A DNA stretch of 64,000 nucleotides from an uncultured Gemmatimonadales bacterium (GCA_963697065.1 CAVOMQ010000003.1:43974-107973); one strand, 5' to 3'. Positions 7,851 through 24,855 are shown, counted from the stretch's first letter. Made by a program: numbers and translations. Notes: a model not told the origin generated them from the letters alone.

Positions 7851-8098
7851 TGGTTACGGTACGGCCCGGTACCGTCGGGGTCAACCGGCGGACAGCACCC
7901 GAAGGATTGCGGCTTGGCCAGCGGGTTTCAAAATGATCCAGCGCCGCGGCTTGGACGTTTTCCGATGGGCGCTGAATCTCCGTGATCGTCACTCCCGCGC
8001 CGCGTCAGGCCCCGGCAACGGGTAGCCAACGACGTCGGCGGACGACGCCCGCATCGACGGCATCCCGCGCAGAATCAGGAAGGAGTCGAACGGATCGC

Positions 8099-9310
8099 TC
8101 ACCTCTCAGGCGCCAGCTTGTACACGCGAACTTCCGATTCGTTCGGATGGTACGTATAGCGTGCGACCAGATATCCGTTGGCGATCTGGAGCACCTCCAG
8201 GTCGCCCGGCATAACAGTCGTACCGAGGAACCGCCCGCTACGATCAAACACGTCCCAGGTGGCCGGGTCGCCCGTCACCGCCCACATCCGAGCCCAGAGG
8301 CGGTGCGCATCGTCAACCTTCAGCGCGGTGTAGGCGGGCTCCCGCGGAGGAAATCGAATCCATTCGAGTGCCAGGCTGTCGTCATGCCTGAGCACCGGAT
8401 CACTCCGCTGGAGACGCGCCCGCTTGAGTCGCCGCAGCAGCTCCGGTGTCACCGATCCGCGCTCCCGCCCGATCCGGATCAGGCCCAGCAGTCTACCGGT
8501 GGGAGCGCGCTGCTGTATCTCGAACGCCGAGCCGTCCGTGTAGTACCACCAGTCGTCATCCACCGCAATGGAGCCGATCTGGCCGAGTGGCGTCTGGCCG
8601 GCGACGCTGTAGTGCATGGCGAAGCCGAAGCGCTCGGCCCCGAAGAACGGGCCGAGCTCCGTCAGCTTTCCTTTGCGATCGACGTGATAGACGACAATCG
8701 TGTCGATGTCGGTCTGGCGATTCTGAGGCAGGAGCTGATTGTGCGTCGTGCCGATCATCTCGCCCGACGCGAACGCGCCGAGGATCGACAGGAACGGTCG
8801 TTCCCACCCCCCTCGGGGGAGCTTCGAGCGAATGTCGGGCGGGTTCTCGACGCGGCGGGTTTGAAGGACGGAACCCCTGCGGCTCAGTTGCATCAGCCGA
8901 TTGGCCACCCCATCCCATTCCACCACCGTACCACCGGCCATCGTGAAGAGATTCGACGGCCCTTCGCGCCCCGAGATGCCGACGACGTCGATGCCGAATC
9001 GGTAGCCACCGTCAGGCTTGAAGAAGGCGACGCGATCGTGGTCGAATTCCGCCACCACGACATTACCGTCCATCAGCCGCAGCGCGCCGGAGACGATACC
9101 GAGGTCAGCGTTGCCTTTGGCGCCCGGCCCGCCCAATGCGACAATCGGAGCCGGCTCGACTACTCGCCAGCTGTTCGTGTCCAATATTGGCGCGGCGTTC
9201 GAGACGATTCTCACCCCAGCGCTATCCCGGACGCGTGGCAGCTGTGCGTGGCACCGACCAAGCCATGCCGCCAACATTACGCTCGCGCATACGAAGCGGC
9301 TAAGGGCCAT
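8099..9310 (-). CDS. 6-bladed beta-propeller secreted protein
   Basis: Signal peptide, VRDSAGVRIVSN, GREGPS, VDDAHRLWAR..WDVFDRSGRFLG motifs. Confidence 0.7.
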   Translation of the reverse strand: MALSRFVCASVMLAAWLGRCHAQLPRVRDSAGVRIVSNAAPILDTNSWRVVEPAPIVALGGPGAKGNADLGIVSGALRLMDGNVVVAEFDHDRVAFFKPDGGYRFGIDVVGISGREGPSNLFTMAGGTVVEWDGVANRLMQLSRRGSVLQTRRVENPPDIRSKLPRGGWERPFLSILGAFASGEMIGTTHNQLLPQNRQTDIDTIVVYHVDRKGKLTELGPFFGAERFGFAMHYSVAGQTPLGQIGSIAVDDDWWYYTDGSAFEIQQRAPTGRLLGLIRIGRERGSVTPELLRRLKRARLQRSDPVLRHDDSLALEWIRFPPREPAYTALKVDDAHRLWARMWAVTGDPATWDVFDRSGRFLGTTVMPGDLEVLQIANGYLVARYTYHPNESEVRVYKLAPER

Positions 9311-10076
9311 GTCGTGCACTCTGCAGCACCCGCCGGACAGTGTCAAGCCCGTAATCGGTCTTCTCAGCGTCTTGCAAGTCCGGTCTAACAGTCCTCCCAA
9401 GGAGGCTTGCAACGAGCCGGTTCAATTGCTGGAAGGGCATCGCACCGGCAACCGGCAGTCCGTTGATGAACGACGTTGGCGTTCCAACAATGCCAAGTTG
9501 TGCGGCTTCCCGGGTATCCCGATTCACCCTGTCCTGATACATCCCGGATTGGACGCAAATGCTGTAGCGCCTCATGTCTGGAATACGGATGCTGTCCCCA
9601 ATGTCGTGCCATGGCTCGTGCGTTACTGCGGTCGCTCCGAAGCTGAACGCCGCTCGATAGTACTCCGGGAATCTCCCCTGATCGGCTGCGCACTGGCCGC
9701 CCTCGTGTAGCTGGAGCTCGGCAAGCCCGGGTTGGAATAGGAGGTTCTTGACAACAACGGCAACCACATCGGGGTAGCGCCGCCGGAGCTTCTCGATTGT
9801 GGCAGAAAAACTCACGCAATAGCCACAGGCGTAGTTCACAAACTCGACGATAACGACCGGCGCGTCGTCCGGGCCCATCCGGGGTCCTTCGGCGGCCATT
9901 TGATAGAAGAGCGTCGGGTCTATGCTTCCGTCGGGCAGCGAGGGCAACGAGAGCCGCTGCGCGCTGCGGCGCCGTTGATAGGCTGCAACCCGGTCTCGAA
10001 TGCCCAGGATAACCAGCCCGAGTGCGACGACATACAGAATCTTCGTCGCGCGGTTAAGCATCTTGGCGATTGGCAT
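9300..10076 (-). CDS. DsbA-family thiol-disulfide oxidoreductase (module 1)
   Basis: GPDDAPVVIVEFVNYACGYC and GIVGTPTSFING motifs; N-terminal TM anchor. Confidence 0.85.
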   Translation of the reverse strand: MPIAKMLNRATKILYVVALGLVILGIRDRVAAYQRRRSAQRLSLPSLPDGSIDPTLFYQMAAEGPRMGPDDAPVVIVEFVNYACGYCVSFSATIEKLRRRYPDVVAVVVKNLLFQPGLAELQLHEGGQCAADQGRFPEYYRAAFSFGATAVTHEPWHDIGDSIRIPDMRRYSICVQSGMYQDRVNRDTREAAQLGIVGTPTSFINGLPVAGAMPFQQLNRLVASLLGRTVRPDLQDAEKTDYGLDTVRRVLQSARHGP

Positions 10077-10091
10077 CTCAGAACGCCCGCC

Positions 10092-11207
10092 TCACCTATG
10101 CGTCGAGGCCGCCACCCGCCGACCAGAGCTTACGGCGGGATTGGCTTCCAGGCGATATTCGAAAATGCCTTCGCCGTTCTGACCTGCAGCGAAGAGTGTA
10201 GTGTCACCCGAGACAGCAATGGTACTCATCTCGTGGTTCAGCCCGATCACGTTGACCAACTGCCCATCCCAGTCGAAGACGTGTACATACCTGGCCGCGC
10301 GTACCCTCCCTCCGTGGGGGCCGTCGGTTCGGTGGCCGGCGAATAGCGCGTAGAGATAGCGCGACGTTGCGTCGCAGTCGATGTAGTAGAACCAATCAGC
10401 CTGAGCCCACAACGTGTGCCGACGCGGAGACATCGCCCAGTCTCCGTTTGAGGCAAATGGTACGCTTGCACGAACCACGAACAGACCAGCTGAGTCGAAG
10501 ATGTCGATTCGGCCCCCGAGCTGGTACAGCACCGCAAATCGACGTGCGACGGGACTGGCGCATGCTGCGAATCCCCCCGATGCGGCACGGCGAGCCAGCA
10601 GTGGTATTGAATCGGCTCCGAGAAGCGCTGCATTGTGCATGGCCAACAAGTGGCCACTCGTATCCGAAATGATGATTCGATTCGTATCCATGTCGCCGAT
10701 GCCGACGAGTCGGTTGCGGGCAAGCCAGAGCAAAGCATATACGTCGACGAAGGCGCTCGGTGGATGGAATATCGCATAGTCGGCCGTTGGGCGACCGGTC
10801 TCCCGCGTCATCCGCTTCAAACCGTCGTCGTAAGCCCAGATTCCGGCGTCATCACCCGGACGATGGCTGAATTGTGGCATCTTCTTGAAGTCACCGGGTC
10901 CTTCCCCATGCCGCCCCATCGAAACTGAGACCTCGCCGGTTGCAATATCCACAGCGTGCAAATAGGGATCTCCGGAGCGATCACCTACCCATAGGCGATC
11001 ACCCTGGACGCCGAGGTGTCCCGGGTCACCAATGATCGGATCGGACACGAGCAAGCGAGGTTCGGGATACTGCGGATGAAGGTCGGCGTGGGAAATCGCT
11101 GGTGTGCCGTCAGCAAGGTGGTCCAAAGGCCAGCCGGACAAGGTAGCGTGCCGACATCCGGTTGCGAGCAGGAGCGTAACTGGCCCAAGTACCCGGAGCG
11201 CCGTCAT
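10092..11207 (-). CDS. BF3164/TolB-like 6-blade propeller lipoprotein (module 1)
   Basis: Lipobox LLATGC; GRHGEGPGDF; YLYALFAG..YVHVFDWDGQ C-terminal motif. Start uncertain (11207 or 11309). Confidence 0.7.
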   Translation of the reverse strand: MTALRVLGPVTLLLATGCRHATLSGWPLDHLADGTPAISHADLHPQYPEPRLLVSDPIIGDPGHLGVQGDRLWVGDRSGDPYLHAVDIATGEVSVSMGRHGEGPGDFKKMPQFSHRPGDDAGIWAYDDGLKRMTRETGRPTADYAIFHPPSAFVDVYALLWLARNRLVGIGDMDTNRIIISDTSGHLLAMHNAALLGADSIPLLARRAASGGFAACASPVARRFAVLYQLGGRIDIFDSAGLFVVRASVPFASNGDWAMSPRRHTLWAQADWFYYIDCDATSRYLYALFAGHRTDGPHGGRVRAARYVHVFDWDGQLVNVIGLNHEMSTIAVSGDTTLFAAGQNGEGIFEYRLEANPAVSSGRRVAASTHR

Positions 11208-11305
11208 CCGCGTCGCCCTCGATCCGGCAGTCGCCAAGCCCCGGTCGGCAGAGCGCGCCTTTCGCTCTCCCGACCGGAGCCAAGCGGGAGCTTCAATCAG
11301 ACATG

Positions 11306-11581
11306 TCAATGGTTCCAGTAGGTGTCAAGATTGATGCCCGAGTGGAACGGGTCGCACCGCACGCTGATCGGGTCACACGTGTCACAGTTGCCGGCACTGC
11401 AGTAGCTGTTTTCCTCGTAAGTCCCCGATTGATCAGTGTGGACGCAGAGGTGGTTGGCTTCAGCCTCGCATAAGATCCCCTGAGTGGCATGCAGGACTGG
11501 CGTTCTTCCCGCAAACGTGGCCAATGCCAATGTGATGATTGCCGCTGCCGAGAATCGGACAGCCTCTTTCCATGTTTGCAT
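11306..11581 (-). CDS. Secreted 6-Cys peptide P1
   Basis: GGAGG RBS; Sec signal ending PVLHA; mature part C-x7-C-x14-C-x4-C-x2-C-x6-C. Confidence 0.75.
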   Translation of the reverse strand: MQTWKEAVRFSAAAIITLALATFAGRTPVLHATQGILCEAEANHLCVHTDQSGTYEENSYCSAGNCDTCDPISVRCDPFHSGINLDTYWNH

Positions 11582-11819
11582 TGTGCTACCCTCCGTGGTT
11601 GGTTGCTCTCACTAACGACGGATTTCGCAGGACCCCGACCGAGCTACGCGCCGATGGCTGGTTAACCGACGTAGGATCGAGAGACCGTGTCTCGTCAGCT
11701 ACGCGGCTTCCGGCGACTCAGGCGGATGAAGCGGCCTCCACTCAAGCGATGGATGGTGTGCCCTCGCCATGTCGTGAGTATGCCAAGCCCCATCTTGCGC
11801 GCCACGATGTCTCCGTCCG

Positions 11820-11914
11820 GTGAAACCTCGCACCCTCAACACTCACCCATTCCCCGGATTCCGCCAGACCAGAAAACAGTGCTTTCTGCTGTTTTTCGCC
11901 CAGTTTCGCCTCGA
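11820..11914 (-). promoter_or_regulatory. Conserved intergenic element between AraC-like regulator and cargo (copy 1)
   Basis: Non-coding match to 22215-22310; contains AAAACAG-N9-CTGTTTT on the minus strand. Confidence 0.5.
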
Positions 11915-12586
11915 TTACCGATCTGTTACATATCCACCCATGCGCAGGCCGACCTCCAATACCGGCTCCCACGCTCCCATCGCCACGAGCTGCCGCCAGG
12001 TCCGCCCGAAGTACCGGTGGCACCAACGCGATACCGTCTTGACGTCGACGGCGGCCTGCTCGGCCGCCACGGCCTGCGGTTGCGCGGCCGCGATCGCCCG
12101 CGCGATCAGCTCCACGCACGACCCAAGCGCCCTCCAATCGTGGGGCAGCCATGCGCCGTATTTCCGAAGCGATCGGCGCAGCGACTCGGCATCGGCCTTC
12201 GGATCGCGGATGTCGAAGAACAAGCTGGCGAGGCCGAGCGATGCCCTGAATGCGATATACGCTGCAACATCGGTCGCATCGGGAATCCGGCGCTGACCGA
12301 TTGCGATCCTCATTTCAGGGATTGTGTCCGAGACCTCGGCGCCAAATGGCGTGAGATGCATGGCCGGGGGACACAGCAGGTTGAGTGTCGCGGACGCAAC
12401 GGCGCGAGCGCCAAACAACACCGTCGGACACCATGGACTGGCGCGCCACTGATCGACGGCCTCGGCGACACGCACCAGATGATCGTCGTCGTCCGGGACC
12501 ACCAGCAGTGTACCCAGCGGGCGCGGCGCAGGAGGCCCCGCAACAACCGCCTCCAGCGCCCCGGGTAGCAGGCAGCATACGGTCAT
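11915..12586 (-). CDS. AraC-like transcription regulator, copy 1
   Basis: Two HTH-like segments (ESLRRSLRKYG..PHDW; AAEQAAVDVKTVSRWCHRYFG); paralog at 22311-22982; ATG (MTVCC) preceded by GAGGC. Confidence 0.65.
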   Translation of the reverse strand: MTVCCLLPGALEAVVAGPPAPRPLGTLLVVPDDDDHLVRVAEAVDQWRASPWCPTVLFGARAVASATLNLLCPPAMHLTPFGAEVSDTIPEMRIAIGQRRIPDATDVAAYIAFRASLGLASLFFDIRDPKADAESLRRSLRKYGAWLPHDWRALGSCVELIARAIAAAQPQAVAAEQAAVDVKTVSRWCHRYFGRTWRQLVAMGAWEPVLEVGLRMGGYVTDR

Positions 12587-12640
12587 CAGCCAATGCCTCG
12601 AGTCGTGATCGCCCCACGCCCGCGAGCGCAGCACACCGCC

Positions 12641-12695
12641 GTGGCGTGGCGTGGCGTGGCGTGGCGTGGCGTGGCGTGGCGTGGCGTGGCGTGGC
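12641..12695. repeat. Pentanucleotide SSR (GTGGC)11
   Basis: 11 perfect units counted directly. Confidence 0.95.
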
Positions 12696-12700
12696 GTATA

Positions 12701-12729
12701 ACTCTACCGTCCGGGGTAACGCCTGTCAA
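12701..12729 (-). promoter_or_regulatory. sigma70-type promoter TTGACA-N17-TAGAGT
   Basis: Read directly; the -10 box is 5 nt from the SSR. Confidence 0.75.
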
Positions 12730-12809
12730 TGAGGCCTCGCTGCAGTGAGGATCCGCGGCGTGTATGGTTTCATTGCGTTGACGACTTACACCGCGCGGGC
12801 TCCCCCACC

Positions 12810-13294
12810 TCACCCCTCCCCCCGATCCAGCACCCGGTACTGGATCGCCTCCCCCACATGCGCCGGCCCCACCTCGGCCGCCCCCTCCAGATCCGCCAGC
12901 GTCCGCGCCAGTTTGAGCACGCGGTGATATGCCCGCGCCGACAGCCCCAGCTTGACGATCGCCTGCTTCAGCACCGCGTCGGTCGCGGCATCGGTCCGCA
13001 CGAACTTCGCCAATTCGCGCGGCCCCATGTGCGCATTGGCATACACCCCGCGCACTTCCCGGAACCGCTCCAGCTGTCGCGCCGCGCCGCCTCCACCCGC
13101 TGTCGCACCACGGTACTCGACTCCGCCGCCTTGCGCGCCGTGAGATCGTCGTACGCCACCGGCGGCACGCTGAGGTGAATGTCCACCCGGTCGAGCAGCG
13201 GCCCCGAGATCCTGGCCCGATACCGCTGCACCGCCATCGGTGAGCAGCTGCACTGCCGCGAGGCGTCGCCCAGGTAGCCGCAGGGGCAGGGATT
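12810..13294 (-). pseudogene. comM: Orphan 3' end of comM/yifB, copy A
   Basis: [10 protein letters not shown]...[12 protein letters not shown], a direct repeat of 23211-23692; homology ends at GATT (13291-13294); 1-nt indel near 13083. Confidence 0.9.
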
Positions 13295-13725
13295 GGTTGC
13301 CAAACTACCGTTGCGGCTGACCGCGCCGACACCGAAGCCGGGTTACCCCAAGCAGTTCAAGCACTTAGGGGATCATCTGAGGGCCCGGCGGATTGACCTT
13401 GGGCTCCTGCAGAGAGAGGTGGCGGCTCGGATCGGCGTCGAGAAGGCGACACTGATGAACTGGGAATTGGGACACACCGCCCCAGCACCGGCCGCCTATC
13501 CGGCGATCATCGCATTCCTGGGCTGCGACCCGCGTCCCGATCCCCGCGACGGCGGGTGCGGTAATACGCCGAGCGCGGTTGACCCGAGGCTGGTCCTTGG
13601 CTGATCTGGCAGTCCAAGCGGGCGTGGATCCGGCGAGCGTGGCGCGAGTCGAGGTCGACACGAAGGGGGTGACGTCGCGAGTCCGGCAAGCGATCCGGCG
13701 GGTGCTGGGGCTGGCTTCGGTTTGA
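13293..13725 (+). pseudogene. Tandem double-HTH XRE regulator, frameshifted in the linker
   Basis: LGDHLRARRIDLGLLQREVAARIGVEKATLMNWE. Removing one C in GATCCCC (about 13545) continues into a second HTH, AVIRRARLTRGWSLADLAVQAGVDPASVARVE, with stop at 13725. Confidence 0.7.
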
Positions 13726-14037
13726 CCGCCGAATGGGCAGTCGATTGGCCCTCGACGCCGTCCGGTCAGCCTCACATTGTGCGGCCAGTAAGCGAGGCGT
13801 CGATGCTACAATCGAAAGCGGCGTTCAGATCGACGAGCTTGGCATCGTGCTGCGCCACAGTGTCCTTTCGCACCGCAACCAGCCTGGTCCTGAGCTGCCC
13901 AATGTTTCGCCACATCCGTTCTCCGGAGAGCGCCTGTGCAGCGGCGACACCGCTACTTGTCAGGCCGACCGCCGGGCCGGGCCTAGTTCAGTGCGAACTG
14001 CCCGGATTTTCCGGGGAGACATGAGTAACATCAAGCG

Positions 14038-14376
14038 TCAGTAACCGATCAAGTATCCGGCCGCGGCCCCGAGCAGGACACCAATCAGGACAATTCCGAT
14101 GACCGCCGCACCGGATCCACCGTTCTCGCCTGCGGCCGCACCGGCACCGGCGCCAATAGCCCCGCCGACGAGCCCGCCCAGGATCGCGCCGGCGATCGCA
14201 CCGCTATGGTGCGTTACCGAATCCGGAAGCACGCGCGAAGATAAATCCGACCGCCCGATCACTTGCGATTGAACTGGTTGACTCATCCCCAACCGGTCCC
14301 CACCAATCACCTGAGCGCTCGCGGGAGCCGCCAAGAAGAGGCTGATCACAACCACCCGCCAACACGTACGCAGCAT
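14038..14376 (-). CDS. Secreted/membrane protein with glycine-zipper-like segment
   Basis: Signal peptide (ISLFLAAPASA), then AIAGAILGGLVGGAIGAGAGAAAG and a C-terminal TM. Confidence 0.6.
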   Translation of the reverse strand: MLRTCWRVVVISLFLAAPASAQVIGGDRLGMSQPVQSQVIGRSDLSSRVLPDSVTHHSGAIAGAILGGLVGGAIGAGAGAAAGENGGSGAAVIGIVLIGVLLGAAAGYLIGY

Positions 14377-14421
14377 CAGTGAAGCTCCCATGCAGAAGGC
14401 CGAATCCTCCGCTCGGCGACA

Positions 14422-14967
14422 TCAGAACGCCCATGCGTCCAAACGGTCGGAATATGGTGAGGAGTTCGGTTCCGCGCCAGTCCAACCACCGAACCGCTCG
14501 CCCGTCCAATAGCACTCTTCGTAGCCATTATCCTCAAGGGATGGGTTGGTGGACGCAACGCAATCCATCAACGGATAGGAACTCGATCCCACATTCCGGG
14601 CCGGCAAAATCGATATTTGGATGTTTCGGTTCCCTTCACACACCTCATCAATATGACCGCCACCAAAGATGCCAGCGTTGCACTCAGACTCGCTCGCGTA
14701 ATTGGCATGCTTGTTCAATGAAACATGCACGACAGGTATCCCGCCGTGATGGCTGGCGTCGTACGACAGCGCCGTCGGATAGCCGTCGACAGGGCTTAGT
14801 TCATCGGGCATCATGCTGGCGCCATTCGTGTTCGGGACGGACGCCTGATCAATCCAATACAGTTCGTAGTGTCCATGCTGTGAATATGCTGCCTTATCCA
14901 AGACCCAGTGGTGAAACGTGGGTTCGTACCGCACATCAAGAACAATTGCTTCGGAGTCACCCCAATG
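14422..14967 (-). pseudogene. 5'-truncated Vps62/NPP1-like secreted protein remnant
   Basis: HWGDSE...AAYSQHG...VHVSLNKHANY resembles the HxGDWE / YxSxH / GxHAxY pattern; Cys-containing C-terminus; no signal peptide or plausible start. Confidence 0.5.
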
Positions 14968-15151
14968 GCTGGTCGAGTCGTTCGAGCCGCCCCGTGGCAA
15001 CGGCTTGCCAGAAACCCGCGAGGGCACCCACGTCTTTACACCGGATGATCTCGATCGGAAATGGCTGGCCGGGATCGTACCGCACCAGCTCGCCCGGCAA
15101 TACTCCGAGCTCGGGGCAAGGCTGCCGCACGCGGTAATGCGAGGCGTTCAT
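14957..15151 (-). CDS. Small hypothetical protein, paralog of 400-678
   Basis: HYRVRQPCPELGVLPGELVRYDPGQPFPIEIIR..FWQAVATG; promoter at 15181-15209. Confidence 0.5.
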   Translation of the reverse strand: MNASHYRVRQPCPELGVLPGELVRYDPGQPFPIEIIRCKDVGALAGFWQAVATGRLERLDQPLG

Positions 15152-15180
15152 GGGGGACAACCGGAGCGAGAGGTAAGAGG

Positions 15181-15209
15181 AGGATACGGTGCAGGCTTCC
15201 GGACGTCAA
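15181..15209 (-). promoter_or_regulatory. sigma70-type promoter TTGACG-N17-TATCCT
   Basis: Read directly, about 80 nt downstream of the comM copy B stop, facing into the cassette. Confidence 0.65.
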
Positions 15210-15286
15210 GTATCGGTTAGCGGCCGACGCAAACTGTTCGCCGGATCCCGGCCGAACCGTCCATCCCGCCGCTCCCGCGCGACGCC

Positions 15287-15772
15287 TCACCCCTCCCCCC
15301 GATCCAGCACCCGGTACTGGATCGCCTCCCCCACATGCGCCGGCCCCACCTCGGCCGCCCCCTCCAGATCCGCCAGCGTTCGCGCCAGTTTGAGCACGCG
15401 GTGGTATGCCCGCGCCGACAGCCCCAGCTTGACGATCGCCTGCTTGAGCACCGCATCGGTCGCGGCATCGGTCCGCACGAACCTGGCCAGCTCCCTGGGA
15501 CCCATGTGCGCATTGGCATACACCTCGCGCACTTCCCGGAACCGCCCCAGCTGTCGCGCGCGCGCCGCTTCCACCCGCTGCCGGACCACGGTACTCGATT
15601 CCGCTGCCTTGCGCGCCGTGAGATCGTCGTAGGCCACCGGCGGCACGCTGAGGTGAATATCCACCCGGTCGAGCAATGGCCCCGAGATCCTGGCCCGGTA
15701 CCGCTGCACCGCCATCGGCGAACAGCTGCATTGCCGCGAGGCGTCGCCCAGGTAGCCGCAGGGGCAGAGATT
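15287..15772 (-). pseudogene. comM: Orphan 3' end of comM/yifB, copy B
   Basis: [10 protein letters not shown]...VLDRGEG*, in frame throughout; homology to comM ends at GATT (15769-15772). Confidence 0.9.
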
Positions 15773-16207
15773 TGTTGCCAAACTACCGCTGCGACTGACG
15801 GCACCTACACCGAAGCCGGGTTACCCCAAGCAGATCAAGCACTTAGGGGACGAGATCAGGGCTCGGCGGATTGATCTTGGGCTACTGCAACGAGAGGTGG
15901 CGGCCCAGGTCGGCGTGGACACGGCCACAGTACGGAATTGGGAATTGGGGCACAGGGCGCCAGTGACAGCCGCCTACCCCGCGATCATCGCCTTCCTGGG
16001 CTACGACCCGGTGCCAACGCCAAGGATGCTAGGGGAAGTCTCATCCGACATCCTCGACTCATAAACGGGTGGACGGTTGGGCACCTCGCAGCCATGGCTG
16101 GGGTCGTTCCGGTAACCGTGTCTCGAATGGAACAGGACATCCCCGGAACGGCTCGACGAGCCACCCGGACGATCTGCCAGGCAATGGGAGTCGTCGAGCA
16201 CGTCTAA
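15773..16207 (+). pseudogene. Tandem double-HTH XRE regulator, second copy, frameshifted in the linker
   Basis: VAKLPLRLTAPTPKPGYPKQIKHLGDEIRARRIDLGLLQREVAAQVGV; second HTH (LINGWTVGHLAAMAGVVPVTVSRME) lies in another frame after about 16040. Confidence 0.7.
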
Positions 16208-16241
16208 CCGGGCCAACGCCAGGGACGCACACCCCCACCAA

Positions 16242-19200
16242 TCAGCGCGGCCGCTGATTGGTGCGGAGCTGCTGCCGCTGACCGGGTGTGAGGACGCTCG
16301 TCGCATTCGCGTAGTACCGGAGGTCCAGGGAGGACAACGCCTGCACCACCGGTTCCGCTCTTGCACGCAGTTCGGCATCCCCAAGCCGGGGCCCCGCGCT
16401 CACAACGAACAGGGCCAGAGGTGCGAGGAGCGCATCGGTTTCGCGCTGGTATGCTGCGCTCAACGTGGCTAGCGAGTCGAGCTGACGGCCGGTCAGGGCG
16501 ATAGCCGCGCCAGTCGTGATTATCCGTGATATCGGGTCTATTACCCACTCACGCCGCAGTGCGCTCATCGCCTGGCTGAGCCGCGTCGAATCACTCCCGT
16601 GCGCCGGTAAGCCAAGCGCCTTGAGGAGCGCGTGCGACTGGCCCTGCGGCCCGAAGTCATATTGGGCACCGAGCCGGATCTGAAATGGTGGGAAGTGCTT
16701 GCGAGTATCGCCGTACATCAGCGATTGACGAAAAGGGGGTTGACCGTGTAGCGGAATGACTCGGTAGCCGGATCGAAGCCCGTCACATACAGGAGTCGCG
16801 GATCCGGCTGCTGGACCCCAGAGAATCGCCCGAATGGCGTGCTCTGCAGATGCAGCAGGCTTACGATAGCGCCTCCAGCGTTTAGAAGCTGCGTAGTAAC
16901 TCTGAGTCGATCGGTCAGGCCAAATGAGGCTGGTGGGGCAAAATCGAGGTTAAGATCCAACTGAATTTGCCATGAGCTTCGGCAGCTCTCCGCCCCGGCA
17001 ACTCGCCCGATCTGCGCCTGAAGACATGCCCTCGCCGGAGTGGGCGCCGTTCTGAGCACACTGCGCATCTGCGCAGCCAAAGCGGAGTCGCTGACCTTTG
17101 CGGGGTCGAAGATGAATGCGGCGTCATCGCCCGATATATGGTCGCCGTTGACGTCGCCAGCGACCACCGGCGTGAATGGAATTCCTGACGTCATCTGGAT
17201 CCGAGCGCCAAGGGTAAACCACCAGACGCGATACCCAAAGGATCCGACCTATCAGCCGGTGGACGGGCCGATCATTGATCACCGTTTGCACGGCACGAGG
17301 ATCCTCCGGCGTACCCCGGCGTTGGACTTGGTCCAGGTTGAGGGAATACGTGACGTCGAGTGGGATATTCCCAAAGAGGGCTTCAGTTCCGACGTGCACC
17401 TCGACTTGCTCTGCCACCCCGTTCAAGTCCGACACCCACCGGGTCACGCTGGCGAATCTAGGATCCACCCGCGCAGTCCCCGGACCGATCAGCCCGGTCG
17501 TTGGATCGATGCCGGCCGGATCTGCGAAGACCGGACGTCCATCTTCCTGCTGCAGCCGGAACACCGGGGCTGCCGGAAGATTGAGATCGGTGAACGACTC
17601 GATGTGGCGTCGCAGCGCCAGGGCGACCTGCGGCTGCACCCCCCATTGGCCAAGCCGAAAGCCGGTCCCGACCGATGCCTTCCACATCAGGGGTGGGCTG
17701 TATCGGGGGTCAAGCAACTGTACGGACGGTACGCTCGCGGCGAATGCCGGCATCCCAGCACTGTCTGCGCAGGTTGCCGGCGGAGGGCCCGCCTGCCAAT
17801 TGGCGGCTGGAACTGCCGGCCCCACGCACGACAAGCTCTCGGGCGCACCCCGCAGGCCGGTATTCGCGCTGATGCCATCGAGTCGGCTCGGGGACACGGT
17901 TCCCCAATAGGCACCGAGGCTTCCGTAGACGACCTGACCGACCGGGCCGACGTTCTGGACAGTCACATCGTTTGGCCCCAGTACGCCCGCCATGTTTGTC
18001 ATCGTGTTGGTGCCAGGAATTCGCACCCGAACGAACGGCACCTGGCCCTTCGGTCGGTGCACGATCCAGGCGATTCCAATGCGCGGGGTGAGTTCGATCA
18101 CAGCAGGGACGTGATCCGTCCGGTACCCGAACACTGACTCGACAACCGCGTTCAACGGTGGGGTTGCGCCAACCGTGAGGTAGTCAGCGCGTAATCCAGC
18201 GTCAACACTGACCCGCCGGGAGGCTTCCCAGAGGTCCGCGATCCAGACGCTCGGATGCCACGTGACGACGCTCTGGCTGCTCGGATCCAGGAGTCGCGAG
18301 TACGCTCCGGGCTGGTTTTGCTCGAGTTCGGCGAGCGACAGGTAGGCGAACGTGCCGTTTGGATTCGCACCGTTCTCGGCTCGCGTCCGCTCGATCTGCA
18401 AATCCTCCCCCAATCGGACGTGGTGAACATTGCCGTAAAGCTGGCGGGCGAGTTCGTCACGCACTTCCACGCGGAGGGTCGAAGCGTCACTCTGCGCGCC
18501 CCCACCGCCGAATTGCACCGTCGTGCGATCCTGACTGCGCCGTGTCGAATACTGTACCGATCAACACGGATCCGGTCGGGGTCGCAAGCAACGGCTCTGT
18601 ACGGCGCGACGACCGCGTGACAGCAGCCCGGAAATCGTTGACAAAGCCACCCAGATAATTCAGCGCTGTCAGCGAATACCTGTTGACATCATCTCGCCGG
18701 GTAACGGCCGTCGTTGGATAGGCGGCAGTTCCCACGCCTCCGCCGCTCTCGCGATGCCAAGTCGGCCAAGCCGAAAGGGTGACCCGATTCGTTGACCCCG
18801 GTTCCCAATCGACACTGAAGAATCCAGCTGCATCGAGCGTCTGGTCCGACCCAACACCGCGGCTCGGACGCAACGGAATGCCGTGCTCGGACAGCGCGGT
18901 TGAGATGCTCGTAATCGAATCGAGCGCCAGGCCTCGCTCGGCGAGCAGTGGTTCTGGCGCATCGAGAATCGACCGCAGCGGCTGAGATTGGAGCATCGCG
19001 GTCCAGGAAGCAAAGAAATGCCCATCCAGCCACGGGATCGGTCCGGAAGCTGCGCCCGATGACAGGAATTGCCGTGATGCGGGAAACGGCGACGCCGGGT
19101 CCGTCCAGGCGACACGGGGGTCGCTGTACGCCGCCCGCCCGACGGCCGTGGCCGTATTCGAACCTCGCTTGAGCGTTACATCCAGTTCGGCGCCCGGATT

Positions 19201-19851
19201 CTGGCTATGAGCGACATCGGCCGTCGTGCTCGCGTAACGGATTGCCGCGATTGCGTCCGGCGGCAGCAGCCTTGCGTCGGCGCGCATGCCATCCACGACG
19301 ACCGCGTTCTGGTCTGCCGGCGCACCCAACAGACTGCTGCCGGAGTCCGTCACGGACGTCTGCCCCAGGGCGTCAAGCAGTTCGTTCAGATCGCCGGCTT
19401 GATTCAGGATCAATCGCCGGGTGATCACCAGATTCTCTGTGCCGCCGACCGCAGGCCGAAGCCGATCGGATGGGGTAGCGATGTGGTTCGTCGTTGCAAA
19501 TAGATCGGGGAGCTTGAAGGGCGCGGACCGAAGCATGGTGTCGGCGACAATGCGTGACGCCGCTGAAGAAGCACGAGCGGTCCAGCGAACCGGAACGTAG
19601 CCGATCTTTCGGACCAGCAGTACCACACTTGCGGCTCCGTCGAACAGCACAGCCCGATATGACCCGGTCGAGTTCGTGTGGGCGATCTGTCGCTCCGCCG
19701 CGCTCTGTACCGAGACTTCAGCATCCAGGATCGGCTGCCGCAACGAATCGGTAATCCGACCTTCGACGACAGTTGGTGCCTGCGCCTTGGCTGGGTACGC
19801 CAGTGAACATACCAATCCCAAAGTGGTGAGGCCGCGCGACAGCAGCACCAT
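16242..19851 (-). pseudogene. TonB-dependent receptor with carboxypeptidase-regulatory-like N-domain (Oar-like), split into 4 ORFs
   Basis: VEGRITDSLRQPILDAEV..RKIGY N-domain; barrel motifs (DAGLRAD, PRIGIAW, VAGDVNGD, QIRLG). Frameshifts near 18500, 17150 and 16730 may be assembly errors. Confidence 0.75.
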
Positions 19852-19853
19852 CG

Positions 19854-21011
19854 TCAGTGGCGAGGCAATCCGCTCACCCGGTAGCGAACAAGAGTCGCCC
19901 CCTTTGGGAGGACGCGGATGCCGACAAGTGTCGCGCCGCTGACCGCCTTCAGCATGACGTCGCTCGGCAGCTTCACCTGCCCAATCAGATCCCCGCTTGG
20001 GTCAAGAACCGACCACGCTCGCTCGGACCCCTTTCCGTACATCTCCACCCAGACGGACCCATCGTCGGAGACCAGCAGTGCCTGCAACGGCTGGTGGAGG
20101 CGAGCTGGAGAAGCCCGCAACGCACTGTCGATCTGTCGGTTGCGCCCGGGGAGTCGCTCTTCGTCGATCACCGCCGCGATGCCACTATCGAGCTCCGGCG
20201 CTGTGACCGGCGTCATACTGGTCTGAAAACGACACGCGTACGCAGTGTCACCCATTGCGTCCGTTCGGACGACCGTGAACCAACCGGAATCCGGGCCCGT
20301 CATGATTCCCCGGGCATTCACGACGGTCCTGCCATTCGCCGAGATGGCGGTGTAGGGAGGACGGCAGTAGGGGATGGGAATCCAGGAGCCATCCGACAGG
20401 GACTGCTCGCAGAAGACCAACCCGCTTCGGACTGATGCCGCGACGCTCCGATACGAACCATCCGGTGCCGAGACGAGAAGCACCGACGCAGTGCGTTCGA
20501 CGTCACTTCGCAGCGCCGGAATATTCTCCAAGATCAGAAGATCGCCATTGGGCAGATATCTGATTACGCTTGGACCGAACAAGCCGTTGTGAGCCTTCGG
20601 CTGCACGCCGGGGGGTCCCTGAACTGTGCGGGGGACTGGCATTGTGCGGGCGACCGATCCCCGTGTATCGAACAGCGTCAGTCGGGCGAGCCGGTTGTCG
20701 TAAGTCCAAATCGAGTCGCCGCGCCATCCGGCCGATGGGCTCGCTATGAACTGGCCGGGCCCATCACCTTGGGTTCCGACCGTTCGCACCCGAGTGCCGG
20801 TAGAATCCAATACGTAAAGGGAGTAGTGGAATGGACCCGTCAGGAGCAACGAACCATTAGGTCCCAAGGTGACGTAGGCAGTCGAATCGAAACCATACCG
20901 CGAGATGTCGATCGAGAGATCCGAAGCAACGCCAAGCGCCGGCGGCACTTGCGCCGAAGCAGAACGAAGGAGCCCGATGACAACCCCCGCAAGGAGGGTC
21001 GGGATTCGCAT
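19854..21011 (-). CDS. 6-bladed beta-propeller secreted protein (module 2)
   Basis: Signal peptide; VGTQGDGPGQF, GDSIWTYD, VSDDGSVWV..WSVLDPSG motifs. Confidence 0.7.
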   Translation of the reverse strand: MRIPTLLAGVVIGLLRSASAQVPPALGVASDLSIDISRYGFDSTAYVTLGPNGSLLLTGPFHYSLYVLDSTGTRVRTVGTQGDGPGQFIASPSAGWRGDSIWTYDNRLARLTLFDTRGSVARTMPVPRTVQGPPGVQPKAHNGLFGPSVIRYLPNGDLLILENIPALRSDVERTASVLLVSAPDGSYRSVAASVRSGLVFCEQSLSDGSWIPIPYCRPPYTAISANGRTVVNARGIMTGPDSGWFTVVRTDAMGDTAYACRFQTSMTPVTAPELDSGIAAVIDEERLPGRNRQIDSALRASPARLHQPLQALLVSDDGSVWVEMYGKGSERAWSVLDPSGDLIGQVKLPSDVMLKAVSGATLVGIRVLPKGATLVRYRVSGLPRH

Positions 21012-21166
21012 CAATTTGTCCCCCGCCGCGCCACACACAGGAGTCGCCTAGTCCGCTGCCAGCGCCATTGGAGATGCGCGTGAGGAGCTGGACCGCGGTG
21101 TGCCAGCCCCCCCCGCGAATAGTAAAGCATGATGCGCCTGAACGCCGGCGACGAGACCACCGGTGA

Positions 21167-21463
21167 TCAGTAGATGCAGTGGTTCCCGTACCCAGAGCCC
21201 ATGTCCGAGCCATCTGGGGCGTAACAATCTGAAAAGTACTCGCAGTACGGTGCCTGCTCCTGCACGTCGCTCGAGCAGCCCCATTCGAGCGAGACGTCGA
21301 CGCACAACTGATGAGGATCGTCTGGACAGTCATCTCCCGCCTGGCATGCGTCGAATGCCATGCAGCCACCACCGCCCTGAGTAGCCAGTGCCGGCGTTGA
21401 GAAGTACGCCAGCGCAATAACTGAACTGCTCAACACAAGCAACAACTTCTGTCGAACTGTCAT
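21167..21463 (-). CDS. Secreted 8-Cys peptide P2
   Basis: GGAGG RBS; signal ending TPALA; mature part C-x5-C-x5-C-x7-C-x8-C-x10-C-x5-C-x15-C, acidic. Confidence 0.75.
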   Translation of the reverse strand: MTVRQKLLLVLSSSVIALAYFSTPALATQGGGGCMAFDACQAGDDCPDDPHQLCVDVSLEWGCSSDVQEQAPYCEYFSDCYAPDGSDMGSGYGNHCIY

Positions 21464-21505
21464 CGTTCCCTCCCGTTGAGTTGAATGATCGCTGCGCGCC
21501 GCGCT

Positions 21506-22186
21506 TTACGTTGACCGAGAACTTTGCCCAGCGGCCCTATGTAGGACGCGACGTACAATTTCGTCCAACCGCGCACTATCGAGAGCGCCAGTATAACGAA
21601 GCCCGTCGATGACAAGGGTCGGCGTCGCGTGAACCCCGGCTCGAACCGCCGCTATTGAATCCAGCGTGATCGCAGAAACAGGCGTCGATCGGTTGACGCA
21701 CGCAGCAAATGCGCCAGAATCCGTCACGCCAGCGTCGCGGGCGAAATCGGCAAAAGACTTCAGGCCCAGCGAATCCTGCTTCTGATACAATTCGTCATAC
21801 ATTGCCTCAAAACGATTCTGCGCTGCTGCGCATTCCGCGGCCCGGGCGCTAGCGTATGCGAAGCGGTGATATGGCAATGGGTAGTTCCGGAAAATGAGAG
21901 CAACTTGGCTGGGATACTCTGCATGAATTGCTCGAAATGAAGCAACAGCGAACGCACGGCAGGCCGGGCACTCGAAGTCACCGAACTCAATGATTGTCAC
22001 CGGCGCATGCAAGGGACCGATCCTGTGGCCGGCTGCGGCAAAGGTGAGCCAGTCGGAGATCTTCGTCGGCGCTTCCACCAGGGCTCTTGCACCCGCAGGC
22101 TTAGGCCAAAAAGTGCGCTTCACGCTGAGTCCGGTGGTGAAGACTGCGCAAACCGCTACCACGCCAATGACGACATTCGTCCTCAC
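21506..22186 (-). CDS. DsbA-family oxidoreductase (module 2)
   Basis: GPLHAPVTIIEFGDFECPAC, FRNYPLPYH, GVHATPTLVIDG; N-terminal TM. Confidence 0.85.
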   Translation of the reverse strand: MRTNVVIGVVAVCAVFTTGLSVKRTFWPKPAGARALVEAPTKISDWLTFAAAGHRIGPLHAPVTIIEFGDFECPACRAFAVASFRAIHAEYPSQVALIFRNYPLPYHRFAYASARAAECAAAQNRFEAMYDELYQKQDSLGLKSFADFARDAGVTDSGAFAACVNRSTPVSAITLDSIAAVRAGVHATPTLVIDGLRYTGALDSARLDEIVRRVLHRAAGQSSRST

Positions 22187-22214
22187 TTCGTTTCGTTCGA
22201 CGAAGTCTCTGCGG

Positions 22215-22310
22215 GGTGAGACTCGCCGCACTGAACACCTATCAATTCCCCGGATTCCGCCATACCAGAAAACAGCGCTTTCTGCTGCTTTTCGCCCAGT
22301 CACGCCTCGA
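22215..22310 (-). promoter_or_regulatory. Conserved intergenic element between AraC-like regulator and cargo (copy 2)
   Basis: Matches 11820-11914 (e.g. TCCCCGGATTCCGCCA.ACCAGAAAACAG.GCTTTCTGCTG.TTTTCGCCCAGT). Confidence 0.5.
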
Positions 22311-22982
22311 TCACCGATCTGTTACATATCCACCCGCCTGCAGAGCGGCCTCCAGCGCCGCCTCCCACGCATCCATTGCCACGAGCTCCCGCCAGGTCAG
22401 CCCGAAGTACCGGCGGCACCACCGCGAGACCGTCTTGACGTCCACGCCCGCCAGCTCCGCCGCCATGGCCTCCGTATGCCCGGCCGCAAGCGCCCGTGTG
22501 ATCAGCTCCAGGCAGCTCCCGAGTGCCCGCCAGTCGTGTGGCAGCCACGCTCCATACCTCCGGAGCGATCGGCGCAGCAAATCGGCGTCGACCGCAGAAT
22601 CCCGTAAGTCGGAGTACAGGTTGGCGAGACCGAGCGACGTCCTGAACGCGATGTAGGCGGCAATATCGGTGGCGTCGGGCATTCGGCGCTGACGGATTCC
22701 GTTCCTGATTTCGGCGACCGGGGGCAAAACCTCACCGCAAAGCGGAGTTACATGCATTGCAGAGGGAACCAGCAAGTCCAGGATCCGAGGCGCAACGTTA
22801 TGGGCGGCGACCAGGACCGTCGGGCACCATGGGCTGGCGCGCCATTGATCGACGGACTCCGCGACTCGCGCCAAATTGTCATCGCCGCCCGGAACCACGA
22901 GTACTGTGCCCAGCGGGCGCGGTGCGGGCGGCCCGGCGTCAATCGCCGTCGGTTCGCCGGGTAGCAGGCAACACACGGTCAT
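22311..22982 (-). CDS. AraC-like transcription regulator, copy 2
   Basis: Colinear paralog of 11915-12586 (MTVCCLLPG...GGYVTDR). Confidence 0.65.
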   Translation of the reverse strand: MTVCCLLPGEPTAIDAGPPAPRPLGTVLVVPGGDDNLARVAESVDQWRASPWCPTVLVAAHNVAPRILDLLVPSAMHVTPLCGEVLPPVAEIRNGIRQRRMPDATDIAAYIAFRTSLGLANLYSDLRDSAVDADLLRRSLRRYGAWLPHDWRALGSCLELITRALAAGHTEAMAAELAGVDVKTVSRWCRRYFGLTWRELVAMDAWEAALEAALQAGGYVTDR

Positions 22983-23036
22983 CTGTCGATGCCTCGGCTT
23001 GCGGCCACCAACCTCCCGCGAGCGCATCACACCGCC

Positions 23037-23104
23037 GTGGGTGGCGTGGGTGGCGTGGCGTGGCGTGGCGTGGCGTGGCGTGGCGTGGCGTGGCGTGGCG
23101 TGGC
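23037..23104. repeat. Pentanucleotide SSR: 11 perfect GTGGC units (23050-23104) plus 3 flanking units
   Basis: Counted directly; flanking units GTGG, GTGGC, GTGG at 23037-23049. Confidence 0.95.
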
Positions 23105-23109
23105 GTTCA

Positions 23110-23138
23110 ACGATACCGGCTGGTGCAACCGGTGTCAA
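23110..23138 (-). promoter_or_regulatory. sigma70-type promoter TTGACA-N17-TATCGT
   Basis: Read directly; same position relative to the SSR as the promoter at 12701-12729. Confidence 0.75.
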
Positions 23139-23210
23139 GCCGGCACCGCGCCAGCGCAGTTCCGCGGCAGTTACGTGTTGATCGGTGCCCGGATTTCCGG
23201 AACTGATCCG

Positions 23211-24741
23211 CTACTCCCCCCGATCCAGCACCCGGTACTGGATCGCCTCCCCCACATGCGCCGGCCCCACCTCGGCCGCCCCCTCCAGATCCGCCAGCGT
23301 CCGCGCCAGTTTGAGCACGCGGTGGTATGCCCGCGCCGACAGCCCCAGCTTGACGATCGCCTGCTTGAGCACCGCGTCGGTCGCGGCATCGGTCCGCACG
23401 AACTTCGCCAATTCGCGCGGCCCCATGTGCGCATTGGCATACACCCCGCGCACCTCCCGGAACCGCTCCAGCTGTCGCGCGCGCGCCGCCTCCACCCGCT
23501 GCCGCACCACGGTACTCGATTCCGCCGCCTTGCGCGCCGTGAGATCGTCGTAGCCACCGGCGGCACGCTCAGGTGAATGTCCACCCGGTCGAGCAGCGGC
23601 CCCGAGATCCTGGCGCGATACCGCTGCACCGCCATCGGCGAACAACTGCACTGCCGCGTCGCGTCACCCAGGTAGCCGCAGGGGCAGGGATTCATCGCCG
23701 CCACCAGCAGGAACCTCGCCGGGTACATGAGGCTCATCGCTGCACGCGCAATCGTCACCTGCCCGTCTTCCAACGGCTGCCGCAGCACCTCCAGCACATT
23801 GCTCGGCAACTCCGCCACTTCGTCGAGAAAGAGCACGCCGTGATGCGCCAGCGACACTTCGCCCGGGCGCGGAATCGCCCCGCCGCCGATCAATCCGGCA
23901 TACGAGACGGTGTGATGCGGCGCCCGGAACGGTCGGCGCGTCACCAGCGCCTGCCCCGCCGGCAGCAGCCCCGCCACGCTGTGGATCCGCGTCACGTCGA
24001 GCGCCTCGGCCAGCGACATCGACGGCAGGATGGTCGGCAGCCGCCGTGCCAGCATCGTCTTGCCCGCCCCCGGCGGACCGATCAGCAGCAGGTTGTGCGC
24101 TCCCGCCGCCGCCACCTCCATCGCCCGCTTGGCCGCGCGCCTGCGCCTTGACCTCGGCGAAGTCGACGTCAGCACTGCGGCAGCTCGTCCATCAGCGCGG
24201 CCGCGTCGGTGCGCACCGCGGCCAGCGGCGCCTCGCCGGTGACATGCCGGCAGACTGCCATCAGATTCGCGGCTCCCCGCACCGCCACGCCGCCCACCAC
24301 CGCCGCTTCTGCCACGTTCGCCTGCGGCAGGATCAGCTCGTCGCAGCCGAAGCCCCGCGCCGCCAGCGCAATCGGCAGCGCACCGCGAATTGGCCGGAGA
24401 TCACCCTCCAGACCCAGCTCACCAAGCAATAGCGAACGATGCAGCCGATCGTCGGGAATCTGCCCGCTCGCGGCGAGGATTCCGATGGCGACGGCCAGGT
24501 CGAACGCACTGCCCCGCTTCTGCACGTCGGCCGGCGCGAGGTTGACGGTGATGCGGCGCAGCGGCAACTGGAAGCCGGCGTTCTGGAGGGCGGCGGCGAC
24601 ACGTTCGCGCCCTTCCTTCACGGCGCCCACCGGCAGCCCCACCGTGGTGAACGACGGCAGCCCGTTGGCGATGTCGATCTCGACGTCGACGGCGAGCGCG
24701 TCGACGCCGAGGACAGTGGCGGAATGGATGCGGGAAAGCAG
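23211..24741 (-). CDS. comM: ComM/YifB Mg-chelatase-like AAA+ ATPase with three single-base frameshifts
   Basis: [14 protein letters not shown] start, [36 protein letters not shown]. Indels near 24172, 24140 and 23552; CTG follows the GGAGG RBS. Confidence 0.9.
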
Positions 24742-24855
24742 AACGGCCTCCGAGCAGGGAGGCCGGGAGGATCAGGTCTTCAATGGCGCGCAGCGAATCG
24801 AACGGACGCCGGCGGGTTCAAAGAAACGCAACGTTCGATGCGATCCGGCCGCCGT

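Follow-up and report, generated by a model that had tools for sequence, protein, structure and literature searches.

The comM locus of an uncultured Gemmatimonadales bacterium raises the question of how the gene of a DNA-binding protein, here of the XRE type, can begin at a recombination joint without a start signal. The locus lies in a stretch of 64,000 nucleotides (GCA_963697065.1, CAVOMQ010000003.1:43974-107973; the window hereafter) of the Gemmatimonadales metagenome-assembled genome (MAG) G000, which comprises 5 contigs. The last ~490 bp of comM are present three times in the window, in direct orientation (A, 12810-13288; B, 15287-15766; C, 23211-23686), and form a tandem array: comM 3' end A, cassette 1, 3' end B, cassette 2, and 3' end C with the comM 5' part. 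The 5' part is continuous with copy C only; copies A and B run into the arm of an XRE reading frame. From sequence comparisons, junctions A and B are proposed to be attL sites of a comM-targeting integration system of the large serine recombinase (LSR) type, and the XRE frame to be the orphaned tail of the LSR, a reading to which we give a probability of roughly two in three. The joints and the frames that adjoin them are the following (here and below, a slash within a sequence marks a boundary).

12810..13288, minus strand: comM 3' fragment A, displaced, with one frameshift, ending at the CA of junction A
13287..13310, plus strand: junction A, putative attL, CA (13287-88) followed by the element right half-site GGGATTGGTTGCCAAACTACCG
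13296..13725, plus strand: XRE frame A, two HTH_3 domains, frame shift near 13560, without a conserved start; the form in L026, a second MAG, is intact (142 aa)
15287..15766, minus strand: comM 3' fragment B, open, an ORF (open reading frame) of 164 aa, mosaic of 'orig'-type and 'new'-type blocks
15765..15788, plus strand: junction B, putative attL, CA (15765-66) followed by the right half-site GAGATTTGTTGCCAAACTACCG
23171..24700, minus strand: resident comM with ChlI, Mg_chelatase and Mg_chelatase_C domains (Pfam), frameshifts apparent near 24165 and 23552
23685..23686, no strand: putative attB-type site, the CA crossover dinucleotide in intact comM; TG on the coding strand, at the Pro/Cys codon boundary of N-P/C-P-C-G

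The junction sequence and the exchange point

The comM gene is encoded on the minus strand, and the string shared by the junctions is the reverse complement of its N-P-C-P-C-G codons. The core strings quoted in an earlier note on this DNA are all in place: GGGGCAGGGATT occupies 13283-13294 and 23681-23692, GGGGCAGAGATT occupies 15761-15772, and the intact comM site reads GGGGCAGGGATT/CATCGCC. The element arm that the note described as common to A and B, GTTGCCAAACTACCG, has just two occurrences, at 13296 and 15774 (none in 100 shuffles), and VAKLPLRLTAPTPKPGYPKQ, given there as the start of the XRE protein, is translated from both copies. The motif GGGGCAG[G/A]GATT is joined to this arm at 13283-13310 and 15761-15788, and the comM core is unbroken at 23681-23692. 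A chance junction is excluded because ~490 bp of comM 3' end precede each joint and because the joint recurs in 30 non-redundant sequences elsewhere.

The note had placed a site-specific crossover within or next to GATT. The joint is indeed site-specific and lies next to GATT, but not within it: the exchange point is the CA dinucleotide two bases to the left, at 13287-88, 15765-66 and 23685-86. The string GGGATT is common to comM and to the element because the right arm of the element imitates comM there.

The same joint in other genomes

A set of 48 non-redundant junctions of the XRE arm was assembled from Gemmatimonadales, Longimicrobiales, Vicinamibacteria and soil metagenomes. After deduplication the arm is joined to comM in 30 of the 48, always at the same comM nucleotide, and to other sequences in 18. 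The variable comM positions that the earlier note had named as speaking against its idea were therefore not encountered, and the arms unlinked to comM are regarded as pseudo-site or attP-type joints with the same boundary, which do not count against a site-specific event. Outside comM, CA is the last dinucleotide of the flank in 16 of 18 junctions and is therefore taken as the crossover. The comM/XRE joint is found at the same nucleotide in G018 (three in tandem; this genome is a single 3.3-Mb contig), G013, G010, G008, G017, L026, a Longimicrobiales MAG and many soil metagenome contigs. The MAG L026 harbors one unit of 4.07 kb, the undeleted form of cassette 1, encoding an intact 142-aa protein with two helix-turn-helix (HTH) domains.

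Two types of arm are distinguished. Type 1 reads CA/GGGnTTy-rTTGCCnAAnTnCC; type 2 reads CA/yCCCyGCG-TTGCCwTTyTGyCA and departs from comM directly after CA. Between positions +0 and +20 of the arm some third-codon bases are invariant, and in the type-1 alignment the first seven codons all have an invariant third position, which points to a constraint on the DNA itself.

Outside comM, a third cassette, on G000 contig C1 (531760-539157; L001 6761-14158), interrupts a lipoprotein gene. It comprises an XRE frame, an IS21 insertion, a propeller, a DsbA, an HTH_3 protein and a comM 3' copy, and its ends read ...TCCACA/GGGATTTGTTGCC and ...GGGGCA/GAGGTGTATGG (in short, ...CCACA/GGGATTT and ...GGGGCA/GAGGTG). 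The G018 orthologue of this lipoprotein gene is unbroken and encodes T-E-V at this place, which fits a single CA before insertion. The left flank of the C1 site resembles the LSR-side half-site described below at 8-10 of 16 positions. Decayed XRE arms are also present away from comM in G000, at C2:61208, C2:65824 and C2:~256330. At the G018 orthologue of the last of these (C1:465966-470000, L102), a comM3'-HTH-propeller-DsbA segment is joined to a degenerate arm, an arrangement which suggests that array units have been translocated between loci.

Recombinase genes that read across the same CA

A profile of the XRE protein, made from 25 homologues, was run against 1.8 billion representative proteins. 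It collects 430 clusters at E<1e-30, part of which are not cassette tails. Among the best 150 matches considered, three are LSRs of ~1000 aa with Resolvase and Recombinase domains (P0093, P0113 and P0155), whose C-terminal halves are arrays of XRE-type HTH units (E about 1e-38 to 1e-44). Very long proteins (700-4162 aa; P0044-P0048, P0061, P0078) also match the profile, in 5 to 23 separate stretches; Pfam assigns only HTH families to P0044, P0045, P0047, P0048, P0058 and P0077 at E <= 1e-40, and these are either real poly-HTH proteins or the read-through of arrays.

If an element of this kind resides in comM, its LSR ORF should cross the CA into antisense comM in the frame of the XRE. A bait query combining an LSR core with the 55-aa antisense translation of the window from 23685 onward recovered four LSRs, P0186-P0189, with 60-77% identity over the antisense peptide. 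These proteins possess Resolvase and Recombinase domains, and their C-termini are the antisense translation of the comM 5' part. At the DNA level their genes read ...CA/GGGATTCATCGC... and adjoin a truncated comM of 343-347 aa. The comM 5' part of L115 is 91% identical in protein to that of the window, and its element harbors a T4 coupling-protein-like gene. The CA forms codon positions 1-2 of Gln/His in ...Q/H-G-F in the four LSRs as in all 26 type-1 XRE arms. Relatives L110-L115 thus carry their own LSR, and the units of the window do not. By its sequence the comM core at 23685-86 is of attB type, and the LSR/comM joints of L110-L115 correspond to putative attR sites.

When the XRE arms are mirrored, they agree with the 16 nt located 5' of the CA in the LSR genes at 14 of 16 positions in L113 and 11-12 of 16 in L115, where 4 are expected by chance. 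The LSR 3' ends are TTTGGCAACGAAACCT-CA in L113 and TTTGGGAACGAATCAG-CA in L115. These mirror-image half-sites indicate that attP would be an imperfect palindrome, TTTGGCAACGAAACCN-CA-GGGTTTCGTTGCCCAAA, with the LSR core ending in its left half and the XRE frame beginning in its right half; assembled with the L115 left half, it would read TTTGGGAACGAATCAG-CA-GGGATTTGTTGCCAAACTACCG. As in LSR attachment sites, a central 2-bp dinucleotide is common to both partners and the target is not duplicated. Furthermore, an LSR 3'-end remnant of ~30 nt (...LATQPQGF/IAKVP) is fused in frame to the XRE arm in L031 and in G013_C4. The frame, the half-site symmetry, this short remnant and the distant fused LSRs together suggest that the start-less XRE frame is most likely the severed DNA-binding tail of an LSR.

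Does the XRE frame stand alone?

It could be objected that the XRE protein is an ordinary stand-alone regulator of the cassette, translated from a non-canonical or upstream start, the position of the crossover being coincidental or autoregulatory. Its domains match PF01381/PF13560 (HTH_3/HTH_31; two domains in the intact L026 copy), hundreds of stand-alone XRE homologues of 110-200 aa exist, and the type-2 palindrome CGCAGGGA-CA-TCCCTGCG, made of the comM half and the arm, could serve as an operator. Gene callers place ATG starts within antisense comM in some lineages (MHC...) and TTG starts in type-2 arms, and no fused LSR-XRE protein of this family has been found.

The start region argues against such a regulator. 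In the alignment table, 24 of the 26 type-1 arms lack ATG, GTG or TTG at or beside codon 1; the other two have one ATG and one TTG, the latter as in copy A, and a TAA stands at codon 3 in two arms. No canonical start is present in copy B, in the C1 copy or in the three G018 copies, TTG being found only in copy A and in L026. The TTG of copy A (13293-13295) and the TTT of copy B had both been pointed out before; to judge by the aligned arms, the former is a Phe/Leu variant of a linker codon and not a conserved start. By reading of the sequence, an in-frame TAG lies 7 codons upstream of the arm in both window copies, and the upstream frame is closed by an in-frame TAG in G000 as in G018; a promoter scan found no sigma-70-like promoter upstream of the XRE on the plus strand. 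Moreover, the XRE frame is the frame of the LSR ORFs, the L031 remnant is fused to it in frame, and the invariant third positions of its first seven codons are what a protein-binding DNA site would be expected to show. A stand-alone regulator is thus quite unlikely. That XRE expression is tied to the recombination state of this end, as the earlier note had put forward, is very probably true, and more radically than proposed there, as LSR ORFs of relatives cross the same CA in frame.

A proposed route for the cassettes

Under the reading of the XRE frame as an orphaned LSR tail, autonomous relatives would have the LSR gene at the right end of the element, with an ORF that spans attP. Of the two attP half-sites, the left one would be formed by the ~20 bp that close the LSR core, and the right one, its mirror image, by the ~20 bp that open the XRE frame. 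Once the circle is excised, core and frame would be joined, and the predicted in-frame fusion would give the LSR of this family a C-terminal tail with the two HTH domains of the XRE. Integration would sever this tail and move it to the opposite end of the element; with the tail severed at the crossover, the XRE frame would start exactly there, without start codon or ribosome-binding site.

The absence of an LSR from the cassettes of the window identifies them as passengers and not as autonomous members. Each of these recombinase-less units would combine an XRE tail, cargo, and a working comM 3' end from an earlier host. The following route can be inferred for their deposition. An autonomous element would enter the restored comM beside a cassette, and both would excise together via the outer attL. 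The composite would then integrate in a new host, from which the autonomous part would leave alone; the cassette would remain, and the comM 3' end of the earlier host would repair the gene. As each deposit displaces the previous comM 3' end, the array would grow from the comM 5' side. The 3' part of the resident comM (23211-23686) is the copy delivered by cassette 2. Codon differences among ten comM 3' copies are mostly synonymous (1035, versus 285 of nonsynonymous type), which fits the proposed route.

A further step is to regard the system as a serine recombinase gene split by its own attachment site, that brings about an integron-like capture of genes at comM of soil bacteria; we hold this only tentatively. 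The full enzyme, core plus double-HTH tail, might then exist only in the circle and drive integration, the integrated form being a tail-less core and an orphan tail, an idea that we consider doubtful. It is equally speculative that this change of protein form would act as a switch of directionality or of site choice. Finally, cassettes with an attL could conceivably be taken up at the recombinase end and set free there again, with a swap of the tail and a repair of comM at every exchange, which is possible at best.

Several results weigh against an LSR origin of the joint and of the cassettes. No LSR is found in this MAG, nor in the single 3.3-Mb contig of G018 with its three cassettes, and any mobility of the cassettes today is conjectural. 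The cassettes are bounded by an attL-type and an attB-type site, a pair which canonical serine integrases do not recombine, hence the inferred route. A chimeric query, without restriction of length, retrieved no fused LSR-XRE protein near this family at E<=1e-6, and no autonomous left end (comM 3'/XRE) was seen on the same contig as its LSR. Lastly, type-2 arms are in another frame relative to the CA and have no matching LSR among those found.

Cassette contents and neighboring genes

The remaining features of the array are listed below; the gene assignments in cassette 1 are from ORF and domain calls.

9300..12694, minus strand: terminal unit downstream of fragment A, with DsbA-like protein 9300-10076, propeller 10092-11309, HTH protein 11915-12634 and repeat 12640-12694
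13289..15766, plus strand: cassette 1, 2478 bp, with XRE tail, Gly-zipper membrane protein, truncated lipoprotein and comM 3' copy B
14038-14391, minus strand: Gly-zipper membrane protein of cassette 1
14422-15027, minus strand: truncated lipoprotein of cassette 1
15767..23686, plus strand: cassette 2, 7920 bp, with XRE tail, four cargo genes, pentanucleotide repeat and comM 3' copy C
15774-16207, plus strand: XRE tail of cassette 2
16242-19851, minus strand: TonB-like outer-membrane protein of cassette 2, in four ORF pieces
19854-21038, minus strand: beta-propeller protein of cassette 2
21506-22303, minus strand: DsbA-like thioredoxin of cassette 2
22311-23138, minus strand: HTH protein of cassette 2
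23045-23104: pentanucleotide repeat of cassette 2

Compared with the 4.07-kb L026 unit, cassette 1 has an internal deletion of ~1.6 kb. Fragment A is followed downstream by a (GCCAC)11 repeat and then by the HTH gene 11915-12634. The terminal unit to which they belong and the right part of cassette 2 are paralogues (about 81%); the former is either the native region downstream of comM or an old cassette. Below position 8000 the window is syntenic with the post-array flank of G018. Both paralogous copies contain a CGTGG/GCCAC pentanucleotide array (x11 at 12640-12694, x12 at 23045-23104), which separates the comM stop from the start region of the HTH genes of 239 aa and 275 aa; the number of units could alter the N-terminus or the leader of these genes. 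Single-base frame shifts are present in many G000 ORFs, including the resident comM and both XRE frames, where they fall between the two HTH domains. They are either indel errors of long reads or real decay, the L026 and G018 orthologues being open. An Rfam scan of the window between 9 and 26 kb gave no match.

The cargo of the window consists of envelope proteins. Defence-type cargo is abundant in other arrays (L103, L105, L062 and G013 C4, that is L017), where GmrSD with an N6_N4 methylase, TIR/SEFIR, PLD and methylase-restriction genes occur; a further cargo gene is nucleotidyltransferase-like by eye.

Homologous recombination as a second layer

The comM 3' copies share blocks in a reticulate, mosaic pattern, and the genes downstream of fragment A have diverged counterparts in cassette 2. 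When L026 8403-15204 is compared with window 11699-24832, the segment HTH gene-comM 3'-cassette 1-comM is 95-97% identical, versus 82-85% for the chromosomal flanks, which indicates that the comM locus, comM included, was recently exchanged between strains by homologous recombination. Clearly, then, homologous recombination is a second force acting on the array. Recombination or gene conversion among the ~490-bp comM 3' copies, together with exchange of the whole locus, would reshuffle it.

Could homologous recombination account for everything? The comM/XRE joint would then be an old inherited scar, the cassettes would come and go by RecA-dependent Campbell-type or double crossovers in the 490-bp repeats and flanking comM, for example after natural transformation, and the array would be free of any site-specific enzyme at work. 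The mosaic 3' copies and the contrast in identity between locus and flanks are expected from such events, this genome has no recombinase at the array, and a single crossover with a circle bearing a comM 3' fragment yields exactly this architecture. Yet homologous recombination cannot create 18 non-comM insertions with the same element boundary and CA flank. It also leaves unexplained the precise two-ended insertion in the C1 lipoprotein gene, the mirror symmetry of the half-sites, and why LSR ORFs should end at the CA of the joint. As a sole explanation it is unlikely; it is probably a second layer, of spread and reshuffling, and not the origin of the joint.

The search for a recombinase

No recombinase was found in the window cassettes (13289-23686, by ORF and domain calls) nor near the array, and none in more than ten other arrays. 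G000 has no match to PF00239 and no serine recombinase, and P0186-P0189 used as tblastn queries on this genome retrieve only antisense comM. Neither a remnant of the LSR or of the coupling protein nor accretion of cassettes next to an autonomous element was found in G000. No serine recombinase is present at comM among 41 relatives; an LSR on G010 C3 and a resolvase on G035 C92 were rejected as unrelated to the att site. Upstream in-frame ORFs of the 18 non-comM flanks contain no LSR core, the viral contigs searched gave generic HTH matches only, and an analysis of contig ends for a hidden integrase link found nothing. The L115 contig bears an autonomous element at the same comM site and is too short to show cassettes. 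IS110 (PF01548) and IS200/605 Y1 (PF01797) transposases are absent from G000. The ideas of a hairpin (attC) and of a DDE mechanism (TG...CA ends) were weighed from sequence and dropped.

Tyrosine recombinases are present. G000 has five, all on contig C1 and none near the array, and G018 has only two Xer-like enzymes and one integron-type integrase. The start of G000 contig C1 truncates a P4-type tyrosine integrase gene (C1:2-878). The integron-type integrase of G000 (C1:1754160-1755176) is kept by roughly half of the genus; the genes after it encode a trypsin-like peptidase and a TIR-like protein (both by eye), and this place is a candidate chromosomal integron. The G000 dif-like site at C1(-)115056, ATGACGTATAAGATAGATTATGTTAAGT (ATGACGTATAA-GATAGA-TTATGTTAAGT), is the sole close match to the E. 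coli-type consensus.

A resident enzyme of this class, either XerC/D, as in integrative mobile elements exploiting Xer (IMEX), or the integron-type integrase, might insert the cassettes in trans. These are the only recombinases common to G000 and G018, within the genus the IntI-like gene occurs in 5 of 6 genomes with arrays versus 7 of 19 without, and the cassettes stack as integron cassettes do. However, the candidate dif is unlike the att site GCAGGGGCAGGGATTCATCGCC, the crossover is not at a G/TT core, and no attC-like hairpin was seen when the junctions were read by eye, with no fold run. Tyrosine recombinases need an overlap of 6-8 bp, and only two bases are common at the pseudo-sites; it is LSR genes that physically adjoin the same CA. 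Xer/IMEX was rejected on account of the unlike dif-like site, and the integron integrase because its gene lies on another contig, its crossover does not fit and its association with arrays is weak. Insertion by a tyrosine recombinase is thus scarcely tenable.

Comparison with known systems

Serine integrases combine Resolvase, Recombinase, and Zn-ribbon/coiled-coil domains, and several of their elements reside inside genes: Listeria phage A118 in comK, Bacillus SPbeta in spsM, and the skin element in sigK. The comM system resembles these elements by its crossover at a 2-bp dinucleotide, its imperfect inverted-repeat attP, its pseudo-sites that share little more, and the lack of target duplication. 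It would differ in that attP lies inside the recombinase ORF, integration removing a double-HTH C-terminal tail, and it differs in that many units are devoid of recombinase and a replacement 3' end keeps the target intact.

In staphylococci, the staphylococcal cassette chromosome SCCmec and the ccr-less pseudo-SCC and SCC composite islands occupy the 3' end of rlmH (orfX) and are moved by CcrAB or CcrC. They too are tandem cassettes at one gene end, with att joints and varied cargo, often devoid of recombinase and served by an LSR from a neighbor or in trans. SCC joints, in contrast, consist of short direct repeats placed exactly where rlmH ends; here a functional gene end of 490 bp is accompanied by an orphaned tail, and the hosts are soil Gemmatimonadota and Acidobacteriota. 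Cis-mobilisable elements (CIMEs) are found accreted with ICESt1/ICESt3 in Streptococcus thermophilus. These units are flanked by att sites, lack genes for recombination and transfer, and are presumably mobilised in cis once an autonomous element has integrated beside them. As in CIMEs and pseudo-SCC, the window shows attL-type joints (A and B) and an attB-type comM without a recombinase of its own. The CIME system, however, involves a tyrosine integrase and the fda 3' end, and no split recombinase gene.

For mycobacteriophages of clusters G, N and P, Broussard and colleagues reportedly described in 2013 an integration-dependent immunity with attP inside the repressor gene. There, as proposed here, the attachment site lies in an ORF and integration changes the C-terminus and the activity of its product; the gene split is that of a repressor and the enzyme a tyrosine recombinase, whereas here the split gene would be that of the serine recombinase itself. 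Integron arrays share with the comM arrays promoter-poor cassettes at a fixed site, the newest nearest, and the lack of recombinase within cassettes; they differ by an adjacent IntI, which is missing here, and by attC hairpins, of which reading by eye showed none at the junctions; the units here are multi-gene, 2-20 kb long, and have a serine-type crossover.

The comM gene is a convergent target of Tn6022/AbaR, of type I-B1 CRISPR-associated transposons (CAST) and of tyrosine-recombinase elements, which inactivate it (PMC9881144, PMC11472951). Such a tyrosine-recombinase element has been described in cyanobacteria (PMC9881144), and diverse defence-carrying elements in Acinetobacter comM (PMC11472951). 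Frequent defence cargo is a trait in common with the arrays described here. Whereas those elements inactivate comM via transposases or tyrosine recombinases, the cassettes of the window restore it. No description of an LSR with attP in its own ORF, of XRE-capped cassettes, or of comM-restoring arrays was found in text searches of the literature.

Significance

If the reading of the XRE frame as an orphaned LSR tail is true, a DNA-binding "gene" that starts at a recombination joint without a start signal finds its explanation: it is half of a recombinase gene. If, moreover, the tail alters the behavior of the integrase, the system would represent a natural coupling of integrase form to integration state, independent of a recombination directionality factor. 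Such a coupling, if true, would be relevant to the directionality of serine integrases and to their use in genome engineering. The orphaned-tail reading would also account for the widespread recombinase-less cargo and defence islands at comM that keep the competence helicase intact.

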